Origin: an uncultured Melioribacter sp.
GTDB lineage: Bacteria; Bacteroidota; Ignavibacteria; Ignavibacteriales; Melioribacteraceae
DNA: 64,000 nucleotides
Reading direction: 5' to 3'
NCBI GenBank assembly: GCA_964575995.1
Contig: CAZNTN010000007.1
Location: 2,515 to 66,514 of the forward strand
In this document: positions 2,905-43,029 of the stretch, piece after piece
How the letters are laid out: each line of letters starts with the position of its first letter
Numbering within the stretch: the first letter of the stretch is position 1
The notes under the pieces: model-generated
Database searches by the model: none
The model's input: only the letters and a program-made list of their open reading frames with translations
Told to the model about the DNA's origin: nothing
Made by a program: the position numbers and the translations under genes

Positions 2905-5106
2905 CTAATCTTTATTTACATCCAATTCTCTTCCAAGTAGATGCTTAAACCAAAATTGATTTTTAATTTTGGTTACATGCGGCAAGCCAATTCCATGCCG
3001 GAAGTTAGGGTAGAACATCATTTCAAAATCTTTGTTGTGCTTTTGCAATTCAGTAACAAGCTGTACAGAATTTTGCAGATGCACATTATCATCGGTAGTT
3101 CCGTGTGTAATAAGAAGTTTGCCTTTGTATTTATCAACATAATTGAGCACAGAACCGGCTTTATAACCATCCGGATTTTCTGCTGGTGTATCCATATATC
3201 TTTCTGTATAAACATTGTCATACAGTTTCCAATCCATTACTCCATACTCTGCAATTCCGTGTGTAAACAGATTGGCAGCTTTAGTTAAAGCCAAAGCAGC
3301 AACATAACCGCCGTAACTTCCGCCAATAATTCCAATTCGTGTTGAATCGATAAATGATTTTGTTTTAAGCCAATTAACTGCGGCAGAATAATCATTGATT
3401 TCCCATTTACCAAGGCAGCGGTGCATGTAAGCCTGCCCTTTTTTGCCAAAGTGTCCGGAGCCACGGTGATCTACAGAAATAAAAATTATTCCCTGCTGTG
3501 CAAAGTAACTTTGGCTCAATCCGGTTGAATAAGAATTTCTTACCGAGCTGCTGTTTGGTCCGCCATAAATGCTAATTATTACAGCATACTTTTTGTTCGA
3601 ATCAAACTCGGCAGGGAGCCACCATACTGCGGGTAATTCAAAACCATCTCCGGTAGGAATTCTGAACAACTCTGGCTTTGCCATTGCGTATTCATCATAT
3701 TGTGTGTTCTTTGCATCGCTAAGTGTTTTTATTAACTTACCATTAATGGAATACAATTCGCTCTTGGCTGGCGTTGATATATTGCTGTAAGAATCAATAT
3801 AATATTTAGCCTTTGGAGAAACCGATACTGTATGCTGACCAGGAGTTGTTGTTATCTGTTTTAAGTTTTTTCCATCTAAATCAACTACGCACAAATATCT
3901 ATCTGTGCTGTTTTTAAGCGGAGTGTGAAAGTAAACTTTCTGGCTGGTTTCATCTACTAATGCAATGTTTGTTACCTGCCAATCACCGTGAGTTACTCTT
4001 TTTATCAGCTTACCGTTCAAATCGTAATAGTAAAGATGATCCCAGCCATCAACATTTGATCTTAACAAGAATCCGGTTTTGTTTTCAAAGAAGTATAAAT
4101 CTTCAAACCATTCAACCCATTCTTTCTGTTTTTCATTGTAGAGTTCGATTTTCTTTCCGGAGTTAGTATCAATCCAATAAATGATGATGTTGTCATGCGC
4201 ACGGTTCATCCACTGAACTGTTAGACGATTGTCTTTAGTCCATGTTGGCCACGCAATGTAGTGGTCTGCCTTTTCATCAAAATCTGCCCAGGTAATATTT
4301 CCATCGGCAGTATTAGCAATTCCAAATTTTACATAAGGATTAGGATCGCCTGCTTTTGGATAGCGCTGGCGTTCAAGCTTTCCGTGTTGTCCATCAGCGT
4401 GATAAATTGGAAACTCTGGAACCGGGCTGTCATCAAACCTCAAGAAGCAGATTTTATCACTTTGTGGAGACCACCAGAAAGCCGAGTGAGCAGTTGCTCT
4501 TCCGAGTATTTCTTCCATATAAACCCAGCTTGCCCAGCCGTTGTAAATTAATTCGGCACCATCTTTTGTCAGTTGAGTTTCCTTTTCAAGCTCAATATCA
4601 AAAACATAAAGATTATTCCCTTTTACATAGGCTGCCTTTTTTCCATCTGGTGATAATTGAGGAACTTTCTCTTCAGCATCATCTTTGGTTAGCTGTTTAA
4701 AGGTGTTATCTGGACGAGAATAGTAGTAAAGATTATTTTTAGAATTGAACAGAAAGTAATTATAATCTTTGGATGCAAAAGTTGGGCGGTCAATCGAAAA
4801 ACCTTCAGGCAGTTCAACTGTGCTGTTATCTGCCAAAGGAACCGAAGAACCATCTTTTACATTTGTTTTCATTGGGGCTGGACGCGAACCTGGTTTGGCG
4901 GGGTCAACTTTCATCTCAATAAAATTTTCATCATCCAACCAGTTTATAGTTCTGCCAAAACCCATCATGCCGCGCATTCCGCCGCTTTCAAAAACTTGTT
5001 TGTAAGTAAGTTTCTTTTTTTGTGCAAATATTTGCTGTATAGATAATACGCATATTAAAAGTATTACAACCCAAAAAGCCTGTTTTTTTATCGAGGACAT
5101 TCTCAC
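2905..5106 (-). CDS. Dipeptidyl peptidase IV (S9B), secreted
   Basis: Signal peptide, WVYMEE, RYPKAG, GGSYGG nucleophile elbow, DDNVH. Confidence 0.93.
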   Translation of the reverse strand: MRMSSIKKQAFWVVILLICVLSIQQIFAQKKKLTYKQVFESGGMRGMMGFGRTINWLDDENFIEMKVDPAKPGSRPAPMKTNVKDGSSVPLADNSTVELPEGFSIDRPTFASKDYNYFLFNSKNNLYYYSRPDNTFKQLTKDDAEEKVPQLSPDGKKAAYVKGNNLYVFDIELEKETQLTKDGAELIYNGWASWVYMEEILGRATAHSAFWWSPQSDKICFLRFDDSPVPEFPIYHADGQHGKLERQRYPKAGDPNPYVKFGIANTADGNITWADFDEKADHYIAWPTWTKDNRLTVQWMNRAHDNIIIYWIDTNSGKKIELYNEKQKEWVEWFEDLYFFENKTGFLLRSNVDGWDHLYYYDLNGKLIKRVTHGDWQVTNIALVDETSQKVYFHTPLKNSTDRYLCVVDLDGKNLKQITTTPGQHTVSVSPKAKYYIDSYSNISTPAKSELYSINGKLIKTLSDAKNTQYDEYAMAKPELFRIPTGDGFELPAVWWLPAEFDSNKKYAVIISIYGGPNSSSVRNSYSTGLSQSYFAQQGIIFISVDHRGSGHFGKKGQAYMHRCLGKWEINDYSAAVNWLKTKSFIDSTRIGIIGGSYGGYVAALALTKAANLFTHGIAEYGVMDWKLYDNVYTERYMDTPAENPDGYKAGSVLNYVDKYKGKLLITHGTTDDNVHLQNSVQLVTELQKHNKDFEMMFYPNFRHGIGLPHVTKIKNQFWFKHLLGRELDVNKD

Positions 5107-12098: not shown

Positions 12099-12341
12099 CT
12101 ATTCTTGTTCTTCGCGGCGGATTACCTCTACCGTAAAGTTAGAAGCAAGTGCTGCTATTGCTGCAACTGCCGCCAAAATTGGCACAAGCACAACACCAAT
12201 AACACCAAGCGTTACAGGTATTTCAATGTATGCTCTTCCTTTATCATCCTTTATTATTATTCTTCTTGCATTGCCCTCTTTTATGAGCTCTTCAATTTTT
12301 GCGAGTAGTTCTTTGCCTTTTATTTTAAACTCTGCTGCCAC
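12099..12341 (-). CDS. DUF4342 family protein
   Basis: KIEELIKEGNARRIIIKD...EIPVTLG motif. Confidence 0.8.
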   Translation of the reverse strand: MAAEFKIKGKELLAKIEELIKEGNARRIIIKDDKGRAYIEIPVTLGVIGVVLVPILAAVAAIAALASNFTVEVIRREEQE

Positions 12342-12425
12342 AGCATTTCTCCATTTTCGGTTTTAGATGAATGAAGAGATTTGTTTGTTCCAAGTTGGTT
12401 AGAAAATGTTAGGCGGGAACAGAAA

Positions 12426-13592
12426 TTACACTTTTAGAAAAATTTTCTTCTTGTAGAATATCCACATAATTGCAAGCCAGAACAATACATAAAAAAGCGC
12501 CCAGGCAAGAGAAGCATTAATTGGAGAAAGCAACGGCGTAAAAAAAGTGTTATATAAAAAAGATTTTACCGAAACTTTACTTCCAATATCATTTACCCAG
12601 CTAATTCTTGAAAGCATAATGCTAACAACACCAGACAAAACATAAACAGTAATTGCATTCATTCCATAAACTTCAAACGGTTTTGTCCACCATGTAATTT
12701 GTTTAACATCTGCTAGCCAGTAACACATACCAAAAACATTTAACGCCATACCTGCAGTAAAAAGAACATAAGAACTTGTCCACAATGCCTTGTTCATCGG
12801 CAAATACATATCCCAAATAATGCCCGTCATTAAGCCAATATTTCCAAAGAAAAATATCCAAGCAGCTTTTTGTGTTCTATCCAAACTGTTTTTCAATAGC
12901 GTGCCAAGAAGTATCCCGAGCAAACCCGTTGAAATTGCCGGAAGTGTGCTAAGCAAACCTTCAGGGTCCCAAATTTTAGTTTGTCTCCATAAATGTCCTG
13001 ATAAAAGTTGATTATCAATCCATGCAACAAGATTTGGAGCTATTTCTTTATTTGTAAGTTTATCAATTATTGTAGGCTGGGATAAATCTGGAGCGCCAAT
13101 GCCGGGAACCGGAACTAACGTTATCAAAGCCCAATAAATAAAAAGAAAAGATGAGGCGAGAACAGTTTGCGTTTTCCAGTTTGTTTTTAAGTAAATGAAT
13201 GAAGCAGCAAAATAAACTAAAGCAATTCTTTGCAGCACACCGGGAATACGAATGGCAGAAAAGTTATAAGCTGGGAATCCTGATAAAGCAACACCAATCA
13301 AAAAGATGAAAACGCTTCTCTTAAATATTTGTAAAATTAACTTGTTATGGTTATCACCTCTATCTTTTCTTTTTGAAAGAGAGAGTTTAATTGCAACACC
13401 AACTATAAAAAGGAAAAAAGGGAAAACTAAATCTGTTGGGGTGCAGCCATTCCATTTTGCGTGTTCGAGTGCGGGATAAATTTTTCCCCAATCGCCGGGA
13501 TTGTTAACTAATATCATACCGGCAATTGTTAAACCACGGAAAATATCTAATGATAACAAACGATCGGTTTGTTTTTCCATAAGATCATGCAA
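12426..13592 (-). CDS. HGSNAT/NagX-like membrane acyltransferase
   Basis: RLLSLDIFRGLTIAGMILVN, HAKWNGCTPTDLVFPFF, DPEGLLST. Confidence 0.88.
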   Translation of the reverse strand: MHDLMEKQTDRLLSLDIFRGLTIAGMILVNNPGDWGKIYPALEHAKWNGCTPTDLVFPFFLFIVGVAIKLSLSKRKDRGDNHNKLILQIFKRSVFIFLIGVALSGFPAYNFSAIRIPGVLQRIALVYFAASFIYLKTNWKTQTVLASSFLFIYWALITLVPVPGIGAPDLSQPTIIDKLTNKEIAPNLVAWIDNQLLSGHLWRQTKIWDPEGLLSTLPAISTGLLGILLGTLLKNSLDRTQKAAWIFFFGNIGLMTGIIWDMYLPMNKALWTSSYVLFTAGMALNVFGMCYWLADVKQITWWTKPFEVYGMNAITVYVLSGVVSIMLSRISWVNDIGSKVSVKSFLYNTFFTPLLSPINASLAWALFYVLFWLAIMWIFYKKKIFLKV

Positions 13593-31917: not shown

Positions 31918-32448
31918 TTATTCGCTGCAATCCTGTTTGGTCATAACAACTTTATTTACATCAAATCCATTAGCTTTAGATTTTTCTAATATCGAACTGT
32001 AGAGCGATTCCTCCATCATAGGAGTTCTGCTAAGTATCCACATGTATTTTCTGCTTGGTGTTCCAACTACTGCATACGAGTAATTATTTTTATCGAGGTC
32101 AATAATCCAGTAATCTCCTCTGAAGGGCCAAAAGAACTGAACTTTTAGTTTTGAGTTGCCGGAGCCTTCAACAACAAATGCTTTACCATTAACATCATCT
32201 AATTTGCCCTCTTTAAAACACTTGTTTACAACACGAATTGTGGTCGAATCAATCATACTGTACTCAGCAGAAGAACAAGAGCAGCCTTTCTGAAAATTAT
32301 TTGGCAGGCTAGCAATTTCGTACCATTTGCCTAAGTAGCGCTGTACATCTACATTATCTACAGTATCAAGCGGCGGATAGTTAGTTAATGAGCAGCCGGA
32401 GATAAATAATGCTAAGGCTGCTAATAAAGCCGAAATCAAGTTTTTCAT
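31918..32448 (-). CDS. Outer-membrane lipoprotein lipocalin (Blc-like)
   Basis: RYLGKWYEIA, FFWPFRGDYWII, WILSR; lipobox ISGC. Confidence 0.92.
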   Translation of the reverse strand: MKNLISALLAALALFISGCSLTNYPPLDTVDNVDVQRYLGKWYEIASLPNNFQKGCSCSSAEYSMIDSTTIRVVNKCFKEGKLDDVNGKAFVVEGSGNSKLKVQFFWPFRGDYWIIDLDKNNYSYAVVGTPSRKYMWILSRTPMMEESLYSSILEKSKANGFDVNKVVMTKQDCSE

Positions 32449-32509
32449 AAAAATCCTTTTTGATAACTAAGAAGTAATAGCGAAGAACTATAAAATACTC
32501 TCTGTTCAC

Positions 32510-32645
32510 CACATAACGGTTTCGGGTAATCCAGGCTGGTAATGCAGAACTTCAAATTTACCGCCCGACACTAAATACTGCAGCGTAAACTGAATTTACC
32601 TTTAGTCCAAAACCCCGACTGGATTATGCCCGATGCTGTGGGCTG
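32510..32645 (-). repeat. attC-like site 5 (distal, degenerate)
   Basis: + strand CATAACGGTTTCGGGTAATCCAG...CTGGATTATGCCCGATGCTGTG; 3 bp from the GNAT stop. Confidence 0.7.
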
Positions 32646-32648
32646 GAG

Positions 32649-33191
32649 TTATTTTTTCATGTTTTTAATCATTACAACATTGTCATTATAATCCTTTTCT
32701 GATTCACTCAATTCAATATCTGTCATTACAAATCCCGCCTTTTCATATGATTTAATAGCATTCTTGTTTCTTTTAGATGGGGACATTATAATTTGTTCGC
32801 AATCAAATCGCTCATTAAGATATTCGCATAGTAATAATATAACTTTTGTTCCAAATCCTCGACCAGTATATTTAACATCACTCAACCAAATATCCAAATC
32901 AGTACATTTTTTAACTTTATCAATTGCGTTATAATTTATTTGCCCTACCTCGTTTTCTACTTCCAAAATTATGAAACATCGTCCCTTTAAGGGAGTGCTT
33001 CCATCGAAATAGAAATCAAGATAATCTTTATCGAATACTTCCCATGTTGGAATTATTGCATCTGGAAAATACGGAAGCCCCATCATTTCTTTTGTCAAGT
33101 TTGAATTCGTCAACCATTCAAAAACTTTTCTTTTGTCATTTATGGCTGCTGGTCTAATTTTTATCTTCTCACCAATTATCAATTCTTCCAT
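32649..33191 (-). CDS. GNAT (RimJ/AAC(6')-like) acetyltransferase, cassette cargo
   Basis: VGQINY, DLDIW, TGRGFGT, NKNAIKSYEKAGF. Confidence 0.85.
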   Translation of the reverse strand: MEELIIGEKIKIRPAAINDKRKVFEWLTNSNLTKEMMGLPYFPDAIIPTWEVFDKDYLDFYFDGSTPLKGRCFIILEVENEVGQINYNAIDKVKKCTDLDIWLSDVKYTGRGFGTKVILLLCEYLNERFDCEQIIMSPSKRNKNAIKSYEKAGFVMTDIELSESEKDYNDNVVMIKNMKK

Positions 33192-33226
33192 ATTCGATAT
33201 CCTTGTTTAAGTACGGTTTTCTACAC

Positions 33227-33367
33227 TTGCAGCTAACGGGTTGGGACTTAACGAAGGCGGGACATTTAAGCGCTACACTTGATACGAAAACCCGCACTTC
33301 AGTTATACGGAAAAACTTCAGCCGAAGCACTGCACTCCGGCTTATACAAAACCGCTGTTGGTGGCTG
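33227..33367 (-). repeat. attC-like site 4
   Basis: GCAGCTAACGGGTTGGG...AAAACCGCTGTTGGTGGCTG; 8 bp from the upstream stop. Confidence 0.75.
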
Positions 33368-33375
33368 GACTTCTT

Positions 33376-33978
33376 TCATATCAGTCGTCTTACACGCTGT
33401 TTATAGTCCAAATATTTTTGTCCGTGTTGTTCGGTTAAAAACTCTTCTTCAAGTCGGATTTGTATTTGAATGAGTATATAACCAACAATTAAAAACAATG
33501 CAGTCAATGCGTTTGGTGTTGTCAAAAAAAGTCCGACTAAACTCAAAATCATTCCAAAAAATATCGGATTGCGTGAAACGGAAAAAAGTCCGCTTGTTAT
33601 CAACTCTGTTTTAGTATCGTTGTCAATACCGATACGCCACGAGTTTTTCATATGTCCTTGTGCAATAACTGTCCACAGTAATGAAATGAATAACAAAGAC
33701 AGCCCGATATATTTCATTGTTGAACTATCAAGCTGTTTGATTGGTAAAAAGCAGTCGTGTAGAGTAGGGAAGAAGGAAAATGCCAAAACATAAATAAACA
33801 TTGCTAACAAAGTCAGTTTGAAATAAAGTCCGATAAGTCCATAAGCACTATCGTCTTTTGGCAATACAAGCGGATTTTTACCAATTCTCTTAGCAACTAT
33901 CAATGATTTTAAAACGAATGCAGCTCCGAAGTAAATCACGAAGTAGGTCGGCAAAAAATAGTTTAAAAAGTCAGTCAT
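33376..33978 (-). CDS. Isoprenylcysteine carboxylmethyltransferase-family membrane protein
   Basis: SWRIGID, LITSGLFSVSRNPIF, EEEFL...Y.DY...VRR; ATG follows a TATATTTG element at 33991-33998. Confidence 0.88.
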   Translation of the reverse strand: MTDFLNYFLPTYFVIYFGAAFVLKSLIVAKRIGKNPLVLPKDDSAYGLIGLYFKLTLLAMFIYVLAFSFFPTLHDCFLPIKQLDSSTMKYIGLSLLFISLLWTVIAQGHMKNSWRIGIDNDTKTELITSGLFSVSRNPIFFGMILSLVGLFLTTPNALTALFLIVGYILIQIQIRLEEEFLTEQHGQKYLDYKQRVRRLI

Positions 33979-34001
33979 TTTAGTTGAAGTCAAATATAGT
34001 T

Positions 34002-34508
34002 TCAAATAGTTGGTTGTAATGCAGTCGGATAATTGTCATCCGTCAACAATGTCCTTTTAGACAGACATTCAATGTCTTTCCCTAATTCTACCTTCTGCCC
34101 GCCTGCATAAAGATTCGATAACATTCTTGTAATCGCACGAAAAACTATATCCTTCCCATCCTGAACGTTGAACTTCAATCCTGGCTGCGCTGTGCCGTCT
34201 ATAAATACTGCCACAGTGCTTTGCGTGCTATTTTTCGCTGCAACTGCATAATAGTAACGTGTTCCGTTCTCTACTTCAGTATCTACAAAAGCATTGTACT
34301 TTGTTTGTAACGTTACCGCTATTTGAACGTTGCTCGGTAAACTGCTCGGATTGGCTAAGTAATCTGAAACAACAACAGGGCTAATTACCGAAGTGGATTT
34401 AAACACTGTTATTGTCTCACCTTCTGCTTGTCTCGGCTTCCAATATATTTCAATTTCACCGCCGAATGGAGTAGCGTATAATCCTAAATGTTCAATCGGT
34501 TTAATCAT
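34002..34508 (-). pseudogene. Truncated FN3-like, probably phage-derived protein
   Basis: FVDTEVENGTRYYYAVAAKN FN3-like motif. The last ~20 aa appear to read through the leader of the next gene. Confidence 0.5.
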
Positions 34509-34647
34509 TTTTCAGTCCACTTTAACAATGCAATTATAGTTTTTTATGAACCGTTTCTGATGTTATTTTGACAAAATTTGACAATACTTAGGTATATTGT
34601 AGCAAACTCTTCCTAATAAACAAAGCCTAATCTTTATTCAGCATCAT

Positions 34648-34818
34648 TTACTTGTAGCCCTGCGCCATAAAATAAACAACAGCCAAAATGCTTAACATAA
34701 CAGCCATAAATGTTACAAATTTCTCCATTTCGCTTTTTTTAAGAGCAGCGCCGCAATGAGGGCAATTTACAGCTTTGTCGCTTACTTCTTTTCCGCATTC
34801 TTTACAAGGATTCAACAT
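34648..34818 (-). CDS. Zinc-ribbon + TM small protein (56 aa)
   Basis: MLNPCKECGKEVSDKAVNCPHCGAALKK followed by a hydrophobic helix; GGAGA upstream. Confidence 0.7.
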   Translation of the reverse strand: MLNPCKECGKEVSDKAVNCPHCGAALKKSEMEKFVTFMAVMLSILAVVYFMAQGYK

Positions 34819-34851
34819 ACATCATTCTCCGTTTTTGTTAAATATACAGCT

Positions 34852-35481
34852 TTATGCTCTAAAACCAAGTTCTGCTAAGTCTTTCCGAACTCCATCTTTT
34901 AACATATTCATAATAGGCGCCTCAATCCTTTCTCTTGTTTCCTTCAAAATGTTCTTAGCACTAATTCCGCCGTGTTGCCACCCGATTGAGCTTTCCTTCA
35001 TTACTCTAAAAGTTAAATAATGAGAGTATGCAGCATTGTTTTCTGTCTTGTTCACCATTTTAGAAACCGTAAATTTTCCCAAAGGCGTGTTAGTAGTTAT
35101 GTTCTCTCTTGCTACATTAACATTTTTTTGAAACCGATACATTCCCTCGAACTCTCCGCCTGCTTCACCTTGTCCACAAACTACGCATCGGTAACCGTCT
35201 CGTTTTAGAATTTCTGCTTTTTGTGCAGCAGTAAAATCTTCTAACTCACGATTGACAACAAAGTCCGGGTCATAACGATAAACTCCCTTTGAGATTTTTT
35301 GCAGTAAACCTTTTTGCGAAAGCTGCCTAATCTGTCTGTCAGGGTCTCTGAGAACGACACCGGTTCTCTTTTTCCATTCCTCGGCTACCCAATCAACAAT
35401 TTCAGGATGCTTAATATTCCGCTTTGGATTTTTTGTGAAGAACTCCATTATGAGAGCTGCTTGTGATATTTGTTTCTTCAT
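34852..35481 (-). pseudogene. Chimera: N-terminal half of an HNH endonuclease fused in frame to a phage-like C-terminus
   Basis: EILKRDGYRCVVCG is present but no following DH..H/N residues. Continues with YLTFRVMKESSIGWQHGGISAKNIL. Confidence 0.6.
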
Positions 35482-36340
35482 TTGAAAAATCTATTGTTCC
35501 GGTTTCTTTAATAATTCTTTGCATGGCAATTTCACAATAATGCTTGTCAATCTCAAGTCCGATACCGATGCGGTTATTGTTTGCTGCTGCGATGAGTGTC
35601 GTTCCACTTCCGGCAAAGGGGTCAAACACAACATCACGAACAAAACTGAAAAGTTTAATTCCTCTGTGTGGAAGTTGAATTGGAAATGGTGCTGGATGTC
35701 CAATACGTTTTTTGCTTTCTCCATTGAATGTCCAAAGCCCGTTTGTCCAGTCCATAAAATCTGCCTTGCTTATGTCTGACTGTTTTGTTCCACCGGTTTT
35801 TTTCCAGTCGCCTTTGTATAGCACAACAATAAGTTCAACAGGAGCAATTACAAAAGGTGCAGAAGCAGATAGCCAAGAACCCCAAGCAGTTCTTCTTGAA
35901 ATGTTGCCCTCGTTCCAAATAATTGTTGAGTGATAATTCCAACCAATTTTCTGTGCAATTTTTGTCAAGTCAGCTCCAACACTTTTTTGTCCGCCTTTGT
36001 TTTTATCAAGCGGAATGTTGAGCAAAAATCTTCCTTGCGGTTTGCTCCATTTAAAGCAATTCGTCATCCACTTTTCAGAAAATTCTAAATACTGCTCGTA
36101 AGTCAAATCGTCTTTGTTAGAGTTGTATTGTATGTCAACATTGTATGGCGGTGATGTTACAATGAGGTCAATAAATTCTTTTTCAAAAGTGTTTGAATTC
36201 AGAACATCGCCTTGAAATAAAATTGTGCCTTTGTGTCTGAAATACTCTTTACGCCAAGGAACTGTCGGCTCATTTAAGATGCAGTATTTCTCCTCTGGAA
36301 TTTCGTATTCCTTAATTTTTTTTGTCCGCTTTTTCGTCAT
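35411..36340 (-). CDS. Beta-class N4-cytosine-type DNA methyltransferase (M2.HpyAII/M2.MboII-like)
   Basis: TSPPYN, NISRRTAWGSWLSASAP, HPAPFP, DPFAGSGTT; TACCTTTG element at 36365-36372. Confidence 0.88.
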   Translation of the reverse strand: MTKKRTKKIKEYEIPEEKYCILNEPTVPWRKEYFRHKGTILFQGDVLNSNTFEKEFIDLIVTSPPYNVDIQYNSNKDDLTYEQYLEFSEKWMTNCFKWSKPQGRFLLNIPLDKNKGGQKSVGADLTKIAQKIGWNYHSTIIWNEGNISRRTAWGSWLSASAPFVIAPVELIVVLYKGDWKKTGGTKQSDISKADFMDWTNGLWTFNGESKKRIGHPAPFPIQLPHRGIKLFSFVRDVVFDPFAGSGTTLIAAANNNRIGIGLEIDKHYCEIAMQRIIKETGTIDFSNEETNITSSSHNGVLHKKSKAEY

Positions 36341-36413
36341 TGTATTTGTCAAACTGTTTATTTTCAAAGGTAGTTAATCCGGTCAATATCCGGCAGAAAA
36401 GTTGAATGCCTCA

Positions 36414-36551
36414 CTGCCGCCAACGGTCATCGGCTTTGCGTTGGTGGCTTTTGAAACGTAAACTGTCTACCGGCACCAAAGTTCAATAATTACACTAATG
36501 TTTACTTTTAGCAATGCATGCCCACTAACGCAAAATCCGTGTTAGTGGAAG
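36414..36551 (-). repeat. attC-like site 3
   Basis: GCCGCCAACGGTCATCGGCTTTGCGTTGGTGG...CCACTAACGCAAAATCCGTGTTAGTGG; abuts the stop at 36552. Confidence 0.8.
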
Positions 36552-37466
36552 TTAAAATTTTATTCTGTATTCTAAACTCGCAATAAAACTTCTTGTCAAA
36601 CCATCTGGTCTAGCATCTCTCACAATAAACGGCATACCAACATTAAGTTGAATGATACTTTTACTAGTTACTTCATAGTCTAAATAAAAATTACCATTTA
36701 GAGTAAGTCCTTGCGAGCCTATAATTTCTTTTTCAACATTAAATTCATTTGTGTACTTGTCATTTGTCAAGTGATAGATTGGCAAAAGACTTGGTGTCAA
36801 TTTAAATTTAGGGGCAATATTTAAGGAGTAAGAAACTCGTAATAAAATATCTCCAGCTCGTTGAAATTTATTGGTTGAATGAAATGTTCTCAGTTTAGAA
36901 TTAACTGGATAATTCGTCGCAATAAATTGATTGTCATTTTGTGTCAATGGTTGTTGAATGGCAGCTACGAATTGAATTTTCTTAATCTCATATCCAATTC
37001 CGAATATTAGGTCAAATGTTCCCAAACTTGTCTGATAGTCCATTGGAAGAGGAAGATTGTCTTTAGTTTTATTTGCTTTTGACAGAGGTATTTTTGCCCC
37101 TAAAGTAAATTTTACTCTTTCACTTGCTTTATAGTTGGAGTTTACAAAAATGTCTGAAAGCCCAAATACAGATATTCCATTTCCGCTTTGAGCAATTGTT
37201 GTCAATTTAGCATCAAGTCCAAATTTCTCACTTAAGTGTCGGTTATACTCTAAATAACTACCGTAAACTGAAATTGAGTTATCAGCATTCCCATAGAAAG
37301 CACCAATTTTGAGTTGATTATTCAAGACTTCTGTACTGTCTGTACTGTTAGGCTTAAAACTGCTGATAGTACAAAAACCAGCGTCACTACATCCTTGACC
37401 ATACGAAATGTTTGTACACAAAACGTATAAGGCTGTTACCATTAAAAAAAAAATCAATTTTGTCAT
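36552..37466 (-). CDS. Putative outer-membrane beta-barrel protein
   Basis: Signal peptide, QGCSDAGFC, amphipathic strands, C-terminal YRIKF. Confidence 0.75.
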   Translation of the reverse strand: MTKLIFFLMVTALYVLCTNISYGQGCSDAGFCTISSFKPNSTDSTEVLNNQLKIGAFYGNADNSISVYGSYLEYNRHLSEKFGLDAKLTTIAQSGNGISVFGLSDIFVNSNYKASERVKFTLGAKIPLSKANKTKDNLPLPMDYQTSLGTFDLIFGIGYEIKKIQFVAAIQQPLTQNDNQFIATNYPVNSKLRTFHSTNKFQRAGDILLRVSYSLNIAPKFKLTPSLLPIYHLTNDKYTNEFNVEKEIIGSQGLTLNGNFYLDYEVTSKSIIQLNVGMPFIVRDARPDGLTRSFIASLEYRIKF

Positions 37467-37497
37467 ATATAGCTCTTATTGTTAAGTTTGTCATTAA

Positions 37498-37638
37498 TTG
37501 CCGCCAACGGTTTTCGTGCTTTGCGAAATGCAGATTTCGAATCACTAAACTGTCTGCCAGCACTGAATTTGAATAGAAGCAGAAAGTTTCAAGTTTGCAC
37601 GTTACCCCGCCATTACGCCAAACCGCTGTTAGCCGTTC
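37498..37638 (-). repeat. attC-like site 2
   Basis: GCCGCCAACGGTTTTCGTGCTTTGCG...CGCCAAACCGCTGTTAGCC; core nearly identical to 40618-40756. Confidence 0.85.
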
Positions 37639-37643
37639 GCCCT

Positions 37644-39323
37644 TCATTCTGTCAGCCAATTTAGTGCCTCTTGTGTTATTCCGTTATACCAGTCCACTTC
37701 ATTGTCTGTCGAGTTTGCTAATTCATTTGAACGCTCGAAAAATCGTTGAACGTATCTTGGTTCGTGAACATAATTTGCGTTATAAGAATCTTGAAACATT
37801 TTAATGAAAACAAATAACGGCAATGGAACTATTGTCGAAGTTCCACCATAATATTGAATGTTCATTTTGTGCAATGCGTAAAAATGAGCTTTACAAGCGT
37901 CATTTATATTCGGTGCAATGAATAAACAATAAGCTGGTTTTTCAGTTTCTCTTTTGAATTTAGCAAGGTGTCTTGTTACTGGTTCTCCTTCTGTTTCATA
38001 TTGCCTTTGCCCGCTCTGCATAGTTACTTCAACTGTTAAACCGAAGTCGCCATAATCGCAAACAATGTCAGCCATATTGCCCTGTGCTGTTGACATTGGA
38101 TTACCAAAGTCATCAAATTTTAGATTGGGCTTAATTTGTCCACCGTCTAACATTGTCATTGCTCGCCAAGTATTCCACTCCAACATAAGTGGTGTGTCAT
38201 AAAGCGAATTATCAAGTATTTGGTCGAATGTTGTAGATATATCTTCAAAAAGTCGGTAGTCTTTGATAGCTGCAACTTGCTCTGTTAATATGTATTCTTT
38301 TCTGTTTTCTAATTCGTCAGCAAATAAGTTTTTGAGGTCTTGTAATGTTGCTGTTTCAGAAATTTCAAGTTGTGGAAAATCTGCTCTGATTTTTTCTTCT
38401 AATAATGCTCTGTTGTCTGTTAGTAGTGTCGGAGCAAGCCGATCACCAAGATATGCAACATATTGACCTTCGTTATCAATAAAGCAAGGTTCTCTGTCTG
38501 TGTGTTGTAAGAAATAATCAACTTCTTGAATTTTTTCAGGAATTATTGAGATTGATTTTCCTAATTGCGAAATGTTTACCAAACCTGTTGCTCTCAAATA
38601 TCGGAAGCAAGCATCAGCATAATCTCGCATATTGCTTGCTTTGGTGTTTAGGAATTTTGCAACAGAGGCATTATTAGTTTCTCTTGTTTTTGTATTTCCC
38701 GAAATAAGGTCTGCACTGTATATTTCTCTTAACTCTCTGTTAGAATATTCCGCTCGAAAACGCTTGTAGTTCCCTTCATTCTGAGCTTTTGCTATTCTGA
38801 ATTGATTGATTTTCTCAACAATAGTATCAAACTCACGGTAATCAACCAATTGAAGACCGAACATCATTAACTCATCAAATTTCAATGAGGCGAAATGCCT
38901 TATGAGCCTGAAAAGTTCAAGATATGGTTTAACCCAAAATTCTGCTGAATTTTCTGTCGGTTCGTGAAATGGTGAAGGAACTTGAAATTTAAGTAACTGT
39001 CGTAAAAATATTTCGTCTTTTCTTCTTGAAGTTACAAGTTCTTCTCCTGCCGGAGTTAATTGTATTGTTGGGGAAAGAATAACAAAGCCAAGCGCTTTGG
39101 GTGCTCTGTTTATTCTGTCTCTTGCACTGAATGCCGGGTCTTTAGCACCTTCGCCATTGAAAAAGTTTTCCTGTCTCAATAGCTCCATAAATGCTCCTTG
39201 GGTTTCGTTATTCCATTTTTGACCAGCGAAGTGGGTGTGTAATAACCCAATTTCAGGAATCATCTTCGCTGGTGTCCGTGGGGAAGTTGTTACAAAAATT
39301 ACTTTACTGTCAATTCTAGCCAT
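37644..39323 (-). CDS. AlwI-family Type IIS restriction endonuclease (PleI/MlyI/Nt.BstNBI-like)
   Basis: TTSPRTP, SARDRINRAPKALGF, LRQLLKFQ, MADI...VEVT...EGEPVTRH. Confidence 0.88.
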   Translation of the reverse strand: MARIDSKVIFVTTSPRTPAKMIPEIGLLHTHFAGQKWNNETQGAFMELLRQENFFNGEGAKDPAFSARDRINRAPKALGFVILSPTIQLTPAGEELVTSRRKDEIFLRQLLKFQVPSPFHEPTENSAEFWVKPYLELFRLIRHFASLKFDELMMFGLQLVDYREFDTIVEKINQFRIAKAQNEGNYKRFRAEYSNRELREIYSADLISGNTKTRETNNASVAKFLNTKASNMRDYADACFRYLRATGLVNISQLGKSISIIPEKIQEVDYFLQHTDREPCFIDNEGQYVAYLGDRLAPTLLTDNRALLEEKIRADFPQLEISETATLQDLKNLFADELENRKEYILTEQVAAIKDYRLFEDISTTFDQILDNSLYDTPLMLEWNTWRAMTMLDGGQIKPNLKFDDFGNPMSTAQGNMADIVCDYGDFGLTVEVTMQSGQRQYETEGEPVTRHLAKFKRETEKPAYCLFIAPNINDACKAHFYALHKMNIQYYGGTSTIVPLPLFVFIKMFQDSYNANYVHEPRYVQRFFERSNELANSTDNEVDWYNGITQEALNWLTE

Positions 39324-40230
39324 AGGAAACAGATTCTTCTTCAAGTATTAATTTGGGCTCTCGTTTTAATGCCTCATTGCCATAGTTAGAAATAAGTATG
39401 TGGCTTGCTTCAGACTTAAATCTATTTCTAATATTTACTGCATATGATTTTCCATATTCATCTACAATGTAGTTTCCATATAATTTTTCTGTTAGCGGAG
39501 TTCTTCCAATAACCATAAGTGCCTTACACTTTAGGTTTTTGTATTGGTTGGCTAATTCAATGTGGTTCATTTCATTAAATCCGTCTTTATGTTCAGCGTT
39601 GCCATAATCGGAAAAAACACAATCATAAGGCGGGTCTAAAAACATAAAGTCGTCTTCGGTTGCCATTTTAAAGATCTCGGAATAGTCGAGATTGTTAATT
39701 TCTGTATTAGCAAGCAATTTGCTGTGTGATTTTGTAACCAATGAAGTGTTTAGGTTCGCATAACGACCATAAGGCACATTAAATTCTCCTTTTGCATTGT
39801 AGCGTATCATTCCAGAATACGCTGTTTTATTTATGAAGAAGTAAAGTAAAGCATCAGAGTATTTTTTTTCGGTCAACTCGTTGTACATATCTCTGATTTG
39901 ATAATAGAGGGGTTCGTTATAGTCATCGACTCTTTTATCAGGTGTTTTGCTCTTTAATTCTTCAAACTTCCTACGGTTAATGGTATAAACTCTTTCAATC
40001 TCTGTAAGTTCTTTTTTGAGAGCTTCAAAGTCATTTTTTACACCCAAGTAAAATGAAATAAGTTTTGAATTAATGTCATTTATGATAGCTCTTTTTGGTT
40101 CTAAATGAAAAAACAAAGCACCACCACCAAAAAACGGCTCAATATATCGTCCGTCAGTTTGTGGGATATGTTTTATCAAATGAGGGATTTCTTTTGATTT
40201 TCCTCCTCTGTATTTTACTAATGGCTTCAT
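39316..40230 (-). CDS. Dam-family (alpha-class) N6-adenine methyltransferase, M.PleI/M.BstNBI-like
   Basis: KYRGGK, EPFFGGGA, NKTAYSGMIRYN..G.FNVPYG, FLDPPY. Confidence 0.92.
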   Translation of the reverse strand: MKPLVKYRGGKSKEIPHLIKHIPQTDGRYIEPFFGGGALFFHLEPKRAIINDINSKLISFYLGVKNDFEALKKELTEIERVYTINRRKFEELKSKTPDKRVDDYNEPLYYQIRDMYNELTEKKYSDALLYFFINKTAYSGMIRYNAKGEFNVPYGRYANLNTSLVTKSHSKLLANTEINNLDYSEIFKMATEDDFMFLDPPYDCVFSDYGNAEHKDGFNEMNHIELANQYKNLKCKALMVIGRTPLTEKLYGNYIVDEYGKSYAVNIRNRFKSEASHILISNYGNEALKREPKLILEEESVSYG

Positions 40231-40535
40231 GCTTTGGCTGTTTTACGTTTATATTGGACAATGCTTTCAGCAACCACACTCAAAATTTGTGTTGCTTCTT
40301 CTTCGGCAATAATGTCGCAAACCTTGTCTGCCGTCCAAAAACGTACTAACACTTTAGAGTCAACCTCAAGCAATTCCGCAAGAACTATTACTTGTTCTCG
40401 TTTTGCTCGTCTGTCGCCTTTTTCAATCTTGCAGTATGTCGCTGTGTAAATTTCTAACGCAACAGCTAACTGTCTTTGAGGAATTTGTTTCTCCTCTAGA
40501 AGTGTCCTGATTTTATTACCAAAGATTGTTGACAT
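40227..40535 (-). CDS. XRE HTH regulator (controller-like) heading the R-M operon
   Basis: FGNKIR..IPQRQLA..LEI..ATYCKIEKG; ATGA overlap with the methyltransferase. Confidence 0.85.
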   Translation of the reverse strand: MSTIFGNKIRTLLEEKQIPQRQLAVALEIYTATYCKIEKGDRRAKREQVIVLAELLEVDSKVLVRFWTADKVCDIIAEEEATQILSVVAESIVQYKRKTAKA

Positions 40536-40617
40536 AAGTTTGTCTTGACATTATTTGGCAAATATAGTTCTTTTTCTTTAGATCGTCATTTTTTTGCACT
40601 GTCTGTCTTTTTAGGGT

Positions 40618-40756
40618 GAAGGCTGACGGTTTCGGGCTTTGCGAAATGCGGATATCGAAGCACTAAACTGTCTGCCAGCACTGAATTTGAATAGAAGCAC
40701 AATGCTTCAAGTTTGCACTTTACCCCGCCATTACGCCAAACCGCTGTTAGTGTCTG
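40618..40756 (-). repeat. attC-like site 1
   Basis: GGCTGACGGTTTCGGGCTTTGCG...CGCCAAACCGCTGTTAGTG; 6 bp from the stop at 40763. Confidence 0.85.
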
Positions 40757-40762
40757 TAGTTC

Positions 40763-41260
40763 TCATCTTGTCTTGAATGAAATGTCTTTACCTTCCGCTC
40801 GTGCTTGTCTCACTGCTTGTTGATAATGTTCAGGCAATGTTTCCAGTGAAACAATGAGTCCATCAACCATTACAAAATTTGCGAACGGGTTACTGCTTTG
40901 CATTTTCTTGGTTGAAAATTCATTGTCCCAAAGGTCAAGTTTTAGCAAATCCCGAATTTGTTTTGACTTATTTCCAGTCGTTGACTTACTTGTCTCGAAA
41001 AAATTGTTAATGTCATCTATTGAAATGTATGGCTCAAAGGATTTATCAAACAAAAAATTGATTGTCCCCAATGTGTGAATAATTGCAGCTGCCCAAATTT
41101 TTGGCTGTCCAGTTATGAAAGGAACATTTCGTTTGCGTCCGAGTTTTTGTGTCAGCCGTTCTGCAAGCTCAAAATATTCTTCGTCAAGTTTTTTTGCACA
41201 AAATTCTCTCAAAAGGTCAAGAATTTTTTGTTTTTGTTCTTCAATTTTTTGTTTATCCAT
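40763..41260 (-). CDS. DUF6398-like protein, first cassette
   Basis: FC...LDEEY...KLGRKR..P...G...IWAAAII..LG.INFLFD pattern. Confidence 0.75.
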   Translation of the reverse strand: MDKQKIEEQKQKILDLLREFCAKKLDEEYFELAERLTQKLGRKRNVPFITGQPKIWAAAIIHTLGTINFLFDKSFEPYISIDDINNFFETSKSTTGNKSKQIRDLLKLDLWDNEFSTKKMQSSNPFANFVMVDGLIVSLETLPEHYQQAVRQARAEGKDISFKTR

Positions 41261-41297
41261 ACTTTACTGTCGTTTGAGTTTGTAATGCCGTCAACGC

Positions 41298-41342
41298 TTG
41301 CAACCAACAATTTGTTTATCGTAAGTATAGTAAAAACAAATT
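41298..41342 (-). other. attI-like junction
   Basis: Lone GTTGGTTGCAA core (- strand) without attC arms; adjacent inverted repeat AATTTGTTT...AAACAAATT. Confidence 0.55.
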
Positions 41343-41392
41343 ATATTGGTAACTTTACTACGGGTAAACCACCTAATTAGGAGGTAAATAGA

Positions 41393-42214
41393 TTGGTTCC
41401 AAATAAAATTGATTTGTTGCGGGAAGTCCTTTCTTTAAGAAACTATGCGCCTCAAACAATAAAAATTTACTTAAAGGCAGTTATTCAATACAATAGTTTT
41501 TCCGGTTTGCTAATACCAACTCAAGATTCTTTATCTAATTTTGCTGTTCATCTTAAAGAAAAAAAACTTTCGTTTAGCCATATAAAAAATTCTGTAATGG
41601 CAGTTAAACTTTATTCCGAAGTAATCTTTAAGCAAAATTTAGCAAGTGATTTTTTACGAGATTATAGAAAAGAAAGAAAGCTGCCCGATGTTTTAAGCAT
41701 TGAAGAGATAAAATCTATTATTGAAAAGATAGACAATCTTAAACATAAAACTATCATCTCACTCATTTATTCATGCGGTTTGCGCCTAAGTGAATGTGTA
41801 AATGTTAAAATAAGTGATATGGATTTTAAACAGATGCTGATTAAAGTTGTGCAGTCAAAGGGTAATAAAGACCGCTTTCTGCCTCTTTCAAATAAAATGC
41901 TTCTTTTGTTAAGAGAATACTATAAAGAGTATAAACCGAAAGAATTTTTGTTCGAGGGACAAATTCAAAAATATTATTCAGCCCGTAGTATCCAGGTAAT
42001 ACTAAAAACAGCACTGGCAAAGTCAAATATAAAAAAGAGTATATCAGTGCATTCTTTGCGTCATTCTTACGCAACACATTTACTTGAACAGGGTACAGAT
42101 ATTTCAATAATTCAAAAATTGCTCGGGCATAAGGATATTAAAACTACTCTGCTTTACACTCAGATTAGTAAAACACAGCTTACAAAAATTAATAATCCAT
42201 TCGATTCATTTTAA
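41393..42214 (+). CDS. Tyrosine recombinase (IntI-related, lacking the IntI insertion)
   Basis: AGGAGG RBS with TTG start; LRNYAPQTIKIY, GLRLSE, KGNKDR, HSLRHSYATH, LLGH and catalytic Tyr all intact. Confidence 0.93.
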   Translation: MVPNKIDLLREVLSLRNYAPQTIKIYLKAVIQYNSFSGLLIPTQDSLSNFAVHLKEKKLSFSHIKNSVMAVKLYSEVIFKQNLASDFLRDYRKERKLPDVLSIEEIKSIIEKIDNLKHKTIISLIYSCGLRLSECVNVKISDMDFKQMLIKVVQSKGNKDRFLPLSNKMLLLLREYYKEYKPKEFLFEGQIQKYYSARSIQVILKTALAKSNIKKSISVHSLRHSYATHLLEQGTDISIIQKLLGHKDIKTTLLYTQISKTQLTKINNPFDSF

Positions 42215-42245: not shown

Positions 42246-42665
42246 TTATATATTTCCCATCTTAACAATTACATCAAACTCAGCTTTTTCAACAGGCATA
42301 ACCGAAAGTTTGCTGCCCGGCTGGACAAGTCTAATCTTCTGCAACTTCTTGTTGGCTTTAATCTCATCAAGTTGAACAAACTTGGAGATTTTTTTTACAA
42401 ATTTAAGGGTACCTCTAAAATTTACTTATTTTAAAAATAGCACACTGATAAACCTGCAGCAAGCAGGCTAAACAGACCAGCCTGCCATACTTTAGAAACA
42501 ACTAAGTGTGAGATTATTATTGAGTTTTTAGAGGTACCACTAATATCAAACGTCACCCAAATCGGTGAACCATTTTTACTTTACCGATCCTAATGCGTGT
42601 CCCCCGGAACAAAAGCTATGAAATAGGGATAGCCATTTTCACGCCGCCTATTAATTCTTGGTCGA
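42246..42665 (-). pseudogene. EVE-domain pseudogene interrupted by a MITE
   Basis: GYPYFIAFVPGDTH*DR*SKNGSPIWVTFDI | KFVKK...LDEIKAN...GSKLSVMPVEKAEFD. Confidence 0.7.
42407..42540. mobile_element. MITE with TAA target-site duplication
   Basis: GGGTACCTCTAAAA / TTTTAGAGGTACC TIRs. Removing the element plus one TAA restores the EVE frame. Confidence 0.85.
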
Positions 42666-42836: not shown

Positions 42837-42972
42837 GGCATCTCTAAAAACAAAAAATGTTTGTCATTCTGAAGAGTGGAGCGGCGAAGAATCTCAGCTC
42901 TCTTTCAAATAAACAAAGCTGAGCTTCCGATCCCGCTTTGTCGGGTTCGGAAAGACAATTATTAGAGATGCC
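42837..42972. mobile_element. MITE with TTA duplication and an internal REP-like module
   Basis: tta|GGCATCTCTAA...TTAGAGATGCC|tta; internal GTCATTCTGAAG...GAAGAATCT. Confidence 0.8.
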
Positions 42973-43029
42973 TTAAAGCCATTTAAAGTAGTAAGAACTA
43001 AGATTAAATTTTCGGTCTACGTTCTACAC

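Follow-up and report, generated by a model that had tools for sequence, protein, structure and literature searches.

In integrons, the described systems closest to the locus considered here, an additional domain defines the integrase and is held to be necessary for recombination of attC sites, according to passages of three reports (PMC9024848, PMC4889954 and an archaeal integron preprint), and portions of two (PMC7790495 and PMC9024848) tie this IntI insertion to the recombination of attC as a single strand. In the sections concerned, Cury et al. 2016 judged recombinases that lack intI_Cterm near attC sites not to be IntI, and the published rule of IntegronFinder requires the intI_Cterm profile (PMC4889954). 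The relevant part of Smyshlyaev et al. 2021 calls the insertion “not fully conserved” in an integron-like subgroup and describes no arrays for it (PMC8138268). We found no description of cassette arrays headed by an insertion-less IntI-like recombinase in the literature consulted, supplements excluded; other papers may exist. Here we analyze such an array in a 64,000-nucleotide (nt) stretch of DNA from an uncultured Melioribacter sp. (contig CAZNTN010000007.1; the whole stretch is referred to below as the window). Its recombinase would not be callable as IntI by the published IntegronFinder rule, as worded in the part of PMC4889954 that sets it out.

The array spans positions 32508-42214 of the window and consists of minus-strand cargo with a divergent, plus-strand recombinase gene at its head, the layout already read from the sequence by a first-pass annotation. 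Eleven minus-strand open reading frames (ORFs) are split into five blocks by five repeats of ~140 nt. We regard it as very probable that this is an integron-like cassette array run by a relative of IntI that lacks the insertion, and that its cassettes are excised and inserted at G/TT of folded sites. The array is likely an overlooked gene-capture system, and the pairing of this recombinase with these sites recurs in the phylum. We located the window sites with an nhmmer profile built from the five copies and with a covariance model, R1, built from 19 site copies of the window genome and related genomes.

41393-42214, plus strand: IntI-like tyrosine recombinase of 273 amino acids (aa), PF00589 137 bits, TTG start 8 nt after GGAGG
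40618-40757, minus strand: site 1, R1 122.6 bits, R' core GTC
37499-37639, minus strand: site 2, R1 113 bits, repeat D1
36415-36552, minus strand: site 3, R1 101.2 bits
33228-33368, minus strand: site 4, R1 80.9 bits
32508-32646, minus strand: site 5, R1 70.5 bits, the last and most degenerate, R'' core AGC

Both searches bear out the first-pass description of five inverted repeats bounded by AAC...GTT cores, two of them with one mismatch: the cores are intact in sites 2-4, the 3' end of site 1 reads GTC, and the 5' end of site 5 reads AGC. Every site begins 0-7 nt past the stop codon of a minus-strand ORF (0-8 bp in the annotation), and sites 2 and 1 share 93% identity across 121 nt. With its filters off, R1 finds nothing else of substance between 28000 and 46000 of the window; the best further match, at 10.7 bits, falls on the opposite strand of site 3 (101.2 bits forward, so that the match is strongly one-sided), and the rest have E > 1.

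Sedentary chromosomal integrons (VchIntIA, Protein Data Bank (PDB) entry 2a3v), including those of the “inverted integrase” type, are like the window in that a tyrosine recombinase heads a one-directional array. In both, one imperfect, structured palindrome follows every promoterless-looking gene or small operon, the AAC/GTT cores are invariant, each site's R'' complements the R' of its predecessor, divergent as well as co-directional layouts occur, and the cargo is mostly of unknown function, with defence genes in addition. By sequence, fold and tree, the window recombinase is also the nearest relative of IntI. The window recombinase differs in lacking the IntI-specific insertion (I2 region) and in falling below the IntI family cut-off, and sites of the window type differ in having no conserved bulged bases, an invariant A.C mismatch, a centre fixed at ~72 nt with GTG every ~18.5 nt, and a near-constant length. 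A tool that requires the IntI-specific profile would presumably class the array, if it saw the sites, as a cluster of attC sites lacking an integrase (CALIN), and some window-type arrays truly have no recombinase nearby (genome G040); here and in most well-flanked loci, by contrast, an intact recombinase of one family stands at the head with fixed polarity. XerC/XerD-dif and plasmid dif modules have short, two-domain “simple” tyrosine recombinases of ~270-300 aa. Dif-type sites, however, are double-stranded cores of ~28 bp and not 140-nt structured palindromes in arrays, and the window genome's own XerC/D-like genes (L002, L003) fall across a branch with a support of 99.

The missing IntI domain, which the first-pass annotation did not mention, is the main point of difference. 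The window recombinase scores 172 bits with the IntI model TIGR02249, which it matches in two pieces and below the cut-off of 265, and 173 bits with TIGR02225, whose cut-off is 330. Its best PDB sequence match is VchIntIA, the integron integrase of Vibrio cholerae (2a3v, E 1.6e-33), with the archaeal XerA-type protein 4a8e close behind, and 2a3v is also the top PDB fold match (E 5e-16) of an AlphaFold2 model with a mean predicted confidence (pLDDT) of 82.8. The alignment to 2a3v again falls into two pieces (9-177 to 9-181 and 200-261 to 247-308), leaving 23 residues here opposite 66 there, and relative to the canonical IntI of the window genome itself, 4+26+11 residues (~41) are missing in the region of the IntI-specific domain. 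The GLR, KGxKDR, HSLRHS, LGH and Y catalytic motifs align with those of VchIntIA and are invariant or nearly so across 21 family members, and a C-terminal (K/N)SP(F/L)D motif is common to the window recombinase and canonical IntI. Family members of ~270 aa are frequent in public data, where they are named, if at all, XerD, integrase or “tyrosine recombinase/integron integrase”; the named relatives nearest the window recombinase come from Ignavibacteria.

In a tree with 12 Xer outgroup proteins from the same genomes, Xer is split from the short family plus IntI with a Shimodaira-Hasegawa-like approximate likelihood ratio (SH-aLRT) support of 99, and IntI forms one clade, also with a support of 99. 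The free tree nests canonical IntI within the short family. A constraint that keeps the short family together is not rejected (approximately unbiased test, p-AU 0.72) and scores 8.95 log units higher than the free tree, so that IntI may be either nested in this family or its sister. A 289-aa recombinase (L019, G031:C18:152411-156136) carries a short partial insertion at the IntI-specific place and groups as the sister of canonical IntI with an SH-aLRT of 97; its 19-kb locus yielded no site of the window type.

When the AAC/GTT pair is forced, single sites take one common shape. On its 5' side, (Y)AAC and an invariant A lead into a stem of ~13 pairs, which an A.C mismatch separates from a GC-rich stem with 6 pairs that adjoins the centre; the 3' side holds the return strands, a 5-nt loop R-A-A-M-C and then GTT. 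In an alignment of 19 sites with a hand-set structure of 23 pairs, 77% of cells are paired, versus 35-43% with slid partners, and compensatory changes occur in 17 of the 23 pairs. In 78 sites from 29 loci, an alignment fitted to, and so biased towards, the structure of the model, with 6 of the 78 from a locus that repeats training DNA, 90.1% of cells are paired, versus 30-36% with slid partners; compensatory changes occur in 20/23 pairs, and none of 500 shuffles reaches the score. The core letters AAC/GTT are kept in 77, 75 and 78 of these 78 sites. Unconstrained folds of single sites gave inconsistent structures with weak z-scores (-0.5 to -2.3), and RNAalifold on plain MAFFT alignments of the sites returned nothing or 10 pairs.

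The real differences of these sites from canonical attC are the absence of bulged bases, the conserved A.C mismatch and the fixed centre of ~72 nt. Any one bulge column is occupied in 5 of the 78 sites at most, so no extrahelical base is conserved, whereas the mismatch has A in 77/78 and C in 75/78. Of the 78 centres, 68 measure 70-74 nt, and site length is near-constant, with a median of 124 nt from core to core. GTG motifs in the centre cluster near positions 6, 24-25, 43 and 61-62 and number 132, versus 71.6 ± 8.6 in shuffles; GTG(C) recurs about every 18.5 nt as direct, not inverted, repeats (for example at 40650-40725 of the window). The 1-versus-5-nt loop adjoining the core is conserved too. 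The first-pass annotation had singled out a 2-versus-5-nt spacing between core and arm as unlike canonical attC; the asymmetry is real, the spacer on the GTT side being 2-4 nt longer than that on the AAC side in 78/78 sites, but it is not what distinguishes them, since the attC of a relative's canonical IntI is also asymmetric (3 versus 7 nt).

These features bear on how the sites would be used. The platform and recombinase could be as we propose while the sites act as double-stranded or cruciform DNA, through two ordinary Xer-type strand exchanges with no replicative resolution. The enzyme lacks the very insertion that passages of PMC7790495 and PMC9024848 tie to single-strand attC recombination, and the stems have no conserved bulges (at most 5/78 sites per bulge column). 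The arm sequences vary freely while their pairing is kept, however, which fits recognition of a fold and not of a sequence, and the arms stand ~72 nt apart, unlike those of any double-stranded core site; the strand asymmetry of 101 versus 10.7 bits and the conserved 1-versus-5-nt loop would, moreover, mark one folded strand. We consider double-strand use rather unlikely, although it fares best among the alternatives.

Cutting and joining at the distal-core G/TT should leave each R'' complementary to the R' of the previous site and not to that of its own site. We compared the nucleotides before AAC of each site with those after GTT of the previous site in 55 consecutive site pairs from all arrays. 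Complementarity averages 4.87 of 6 (37/55 perfect), versus 2.74 within the same site, 2.31 with the next site and 2.37 in random pairs. The complementary run is 6-7 nt in 41 of the 55 pairs and never longer, as expected of a footprint of cassette recombination at G/TT. In Flavobacterium difficile, the chain is perfect across 12 sites. The complementary outer cores that the first-pass annotation reported in the window are present, GTTAGCC at 37628-37634 with GGCTGAC at 40621-40627 and GTTGGTGGC at 33357-33365 with GCCGCCAAC at 36416-36424.

Duplicated cassettes in other arrays are a further, indirect sign of cassette movement. The array of a Melioribacteraceae metagenome-assembled genome (L029) holds a 1141-nt cassette twice, core to core and at 99.9% identity, with another cassette between the copies, and an array of Empedobacter stercoris (L114) has a duplicate in tandem. 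When 58 cassette interiors were compared all against all with tblastx, seven pairs proved related, two being duplicates within one array, and homologs of cassette genes are found in arrays of different phyla.

12292-13432 and 14392-15532 of L029: duplicate cassette, copies non-adjacent and bounded at GTT cores
3323-3841 and 4445-4963 of L114: tandem duplicate cassette

We then asked how the recombinase and the sites are distributed, with a homolog threshold of E <= 1e-40 and site thresholds of E <= 1e-3 in loci and E <= 1e-8 in a phylum sample. Ten of 41 related genomes have a recombinase homolog, eight of them also have sites, and in the fetched loci of relatives the sites adjoin the homolog. 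A scan with one genome per species gave 80 loci, with homologs 39-57% identical, from Ignavibacteriota, Bacteroidota, Calditrichota, Bacillota, Spirochaetota, Nitrospirota and Pseudomonadota. R1 yields 75 matches in 26 of these loci, nine of the 75 lying in two loci (L067 and L126) that repeat DNA used for building the model; 30 are upstream of the recombinase gene on the opposite strand, 45 are downstream on the same strand, and none fall in the other two arrangements, so that arrays always run away from the recombinase gene. Among loci with at least 3 kb on both flanks, 19/27 have R1 matches. Thirty of the 80 loci end within ~310 nt of the recombinase gene (hand count), which is expected if the repeats break assemblies. 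The F. difficile array places 12 sites downstream of the recombinase gene, every one 0-9 nt past an ORF, and its cargo mostly belongs to no known family. An even sample of the phylum has the homolog in 134 of 401 genomes and a site in 74 of 151, with the homolog present too in 40 of those 74 (hand count). The covariance-model search that the first-pass annotation had called for finds sites of the window type alongside homologs of the short recombinase in several phyla.

Homologs that head co-directional arrays (L077, L080, L093, L097, L138, L139 and others), mostly in Bacteroidota, bear N-terminal extensions of 100-280 residues with one to three copies of a ~45-aa module that ends in W(S)KxxxxWxIP. 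The extension of F. difficile, the sole one scanned, has no match in Pfam.

Canonical integrons occur in the same clade. TIGR02249 matches above cut-off in 18 of the 41 related genomes, and in relatives the canonical intI gene often lies at a contig start. In the complete genome G021, canonical intI heads co-directional arrays (L050, L052) of a different attC of ~215 nt, with a 3-versus-7-nt spacer and a bulged base, and the 13 loci fetched around the clade's canonical intI genes contain no match to R1 or to the nhmmer profile. Of five genomes with the short recombinase that were checked, four (F. difficile, a Desulfitobacterium, Halanaerobacter jeridensis and a Calditrichales genome) have no TIGR02249 match above cut-off, and all four have R1 matches beside the gene. 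Nine of 21 site-positive relatives lack canonical IntI, including G030 (7 sites), G036 (4) and G040 (14). In keeping with the first-pass view of integron architecture in a distinct system, the recombinase lacks the IntI-specific insertion and the sites form a family of their own that was not found beside canonical intI genes of the clade.

A canonical IntI encoded elsewhere could nevertheless serve the array in trans as a CALIN, with the neighbouring short recombinase a bystander. The window genome does have such an enzyme at the edge of a contig, canonical IntI is common in the clade (18/41 genomes), and window-type arrays with no family member nearby exist (G040). We consider this highly unlikely, given that the clade's canonical intI heads another site type with R1 blank around those genes, that the orientation of the sites follows the short recombinase gene in all 75 matches, and that canonical IntI is absent from 4/5 short-recombinase genomes and 9/21 site-positive relatives. 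It is scarcely credible that the repeats are structured gene-end elements (terminators, RNA stabilizers or repetitive extragenic palindrome (REP)-like sequences) near an Xer-like recombinase by chance, since, although they lie at the 3' ends of genes in gene orientation, occur as solitary copies after ordinary genes and give single-site folds that are not strikingly stable (z-scores -0.5 to -2.3), the R''(n)/R'(n-1) complementarity stops sharply after 6-7 nt, as core recombination and not an RNA role explains, one cassette is duplicated exactly core to core, polarity relative to the recombinase gene is strict, and a search of Rfam at E <= 1 gave only a chance match and no matching family.

Several observations weigh against the reading of an integron-like array run by the 273-aa recombinase. 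The window genome carries a canonical IntI (326 aa, TIGR02249 432 bits, C9:197-1177, L005, 196 nt from the contig end), so cross-use is possible. Eight of the 27 well-flanked loci have no R1 match, and in the phylum sample 34 of the 74 genomes with sites lack a homolog at the threshold used (hand count). G040, a complete genome from the same order, encodes no family member (its best matches are Xer-like, at 28-35% identity) and holds 14 sites, grouped in two clusters, while G021 and G023 have 4-6 sites and no homolog; sites without a recombinase can mean that arrays outlive their recombinase or that other site types and enzymes exist. The overlap of some loci with the DNA behind R1 and the leaning of the 78-site alignment, both given above, belong here as well.

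G040:C1:1072000-1084500 (L176) and G040:C1:1820500-1830000 (L177): CALIN-like clusters with no recombinase gene at either head

In the window itself, the footprint is imperfect (7/9, 5/9 and 8/9, and poor for site 5) and two cores are mutated, so that the array looks older than most, with sites that are partly decayed, and it may no longer be active. Twenty public runs contain the window stretch or part of it, all as assembled contigs, and eight runs, present as contigs of low depth, gave no usable evidence on cassette order, gaps in coverage being uninformative. One contig of 4735 nt (run X11) passes directly from 37542 to 40661 and so omits 3118 nt, exactly cassette 2, and a separate contig of like depth covers that cassette; the flanks of the join share 39 nt, from which an assembler may create such a join out of the full array, and the contig is a weak hint of excision of cassette 2. 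The public-run contigs thus hold no direct evidence of excision or insertion in the window genome that stands. With G012, the closest relative (90% identical), synteny extends to the recombinase gene, the sequence upstream of it and a site and no further, which leaves no chromosomal position at which the order of cassettes could be compared.

The array is like an integron in its cores, fold, footprint and layout and departs from one in the two features by which the literature defines IntI-attC recognition, the additional domain and the extrahelical bases. With respect to membership of the integrons (IntI/attI/attC), the catalytic motifs, the palindromic fold with AAC/GTT and the footprint are present, and the insertion, a family-model score above cut-off and bulged bases are absent. 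In the mechanism that we propose, the 273-aa recombinase, and not another enzyme, would carry out the recombination chemistry, and the site would be read as a folded single strand, as attC is. The 1-versus-5-nt loop, the A.C mismatch and the fixed centre may replace the marking of strand and site by extrahelical bases and the I2 helix. Cassettes would enter at an attI-like region beside the recombinase gene and be read from a promoter there.

A wider proposition, which we regard as about evenly poised, is that integron-type capture needs no IntI insertion. A sister or ancestral integrase lineage would then recombine its own bulge-free, folded 140-nt sites, marked by the loop, the A.C mismatch and the phased centre, as a second kind of integron that tools based on the insertion do not see; within the Bacteroidota/Ignavibacteria phylum it would be present in a third to half of the genomes sampled, and it would extend to several further phyla. 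If this is true, the definition of the integron would widen to cassette platforms run by kin without the additional domain, and these platforms would provide a natural test of the origin of single-strand site recognition. Integron surveys of these phyla would also under-count, and Bacteroidota and their relatives would hold a large, unseen pool of mobile cassettes, the window's share of which includes two restriction-modification systems.

The head of the array contains a candidate attI, delimited by comparison with G012. Over the recombinase gene and the sequence upstream of it, the two genomes are similar at the nucleotide level; this similarity breaks off at 41297, within 1-2 nt of the plus-strand AAC (GTT on the cassette strand) that occupies 41293-41295. 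Beyond 41297 the first cassettes of the two genomes differ, and the chromosomal flanks are also unrelated. A sigma-70-like promoter match (TTTACC-17-TATAAT, 41368 to 41340, 10/12) reads into the array. The GTT at 41293-41295 is the predicted crossover of the candidate attI, and the promoter candidate reads into the cassettes, both on the strength of the sequence.

41261-41392, minus strand: candidate attI and outward promoter region (similarity breakpoint against G012; promoter-like match)

Cassette cargo was assigned by searches of Pfam, NCBIfam and PADLOC; restriction-modification systems make up two of the five cassettes.

40758-41292, minus strand: cassette 1, DUF6398 protein (ORF 40763-41260; PF19935 135.7 bits), with no PADLOC match
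37640-40617, minus strand: cassette 2, complete type II restriction-modification system (Pfam, NCBIfam, PADLOC)
40227-40535, minus strand: cassette 2, helix-turn-helix (HTH) control protein
39316-40230, minus strand: cassette 2, Dam-family methyltransferase
37644-39344, minus strand: cassette 2, AlwI-family endonuclease
36553-37498, minus strand: cassette 3, 304-aa protein (ORF 36552-37466)
33369-36414, minus strand: cassette 4, several genes
35411-36367, minus strand: cassette 4, N6/N4 type II methyltransferase
34852-35481, minus strand: cassette 4, 209-aa ORF
34002-34508, minus strand: cassette 4, 168-aa ORF
33376-34005, minus strand: cassette 4, PEMT/ICMT-like membrane methyltransferase
32647-33227, minus strand: cassette 5, GNAT acetyltransferase (ORF 32649-33191; PF13302 48.6 bits)

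Two cassettes of ~3 kb carry several genes each, in agreement with the first-pass annotation. R1 with filters off detects no remnant of a site within the ~3-kb cassette 4. At 34079-35154, inside this cassette, run X11 has half-depth contigs and a joint that skips 1074 nt, which suggests a strain polymorphism within cassette 4 and not at a site. The 304-aa protein of cassette 3 has no match in Pfam, NCBIfam or PADLOC, and the GNAT protein of cassette 5 shows a weak likeness to the AAC(6') aminoglycoside acetyltransferase families, well under their cut-offs (best NCBIfam score 41.5 bits, versus a cut-off of 400). A lipocalin gene at 31918-32448, past site 5, falls outside the array.

At E <= 0.01, R1 has nine matches in the 3.1-Mb window genome, five of which make up the window array. 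Of the other four, one adjoins an incomplete second copy of the recombinase where a contig ends; the remaining three are solitary, each directly after an ORF on the same strand.

C9:24276-24413, C24:45258-45397 and C4:37332-37467: solitary R1 sites
C35:19735-19823: weak R1 site at a contig end, next to the partial short-recombinase copy

Between the recombinase gene and a DUF1232 gene, two elements of ~135-140 nt with terminal inverted repeats of ~12-14 nt lie at 42403-42538 and 42837-42977. R1 gives no match to either. In eight public runs, contigs diverge precisely where the elements begin and end and carry variant centres. The pair fits a family of repeats like miniature inverted-repeat transposable elements (MITEs).

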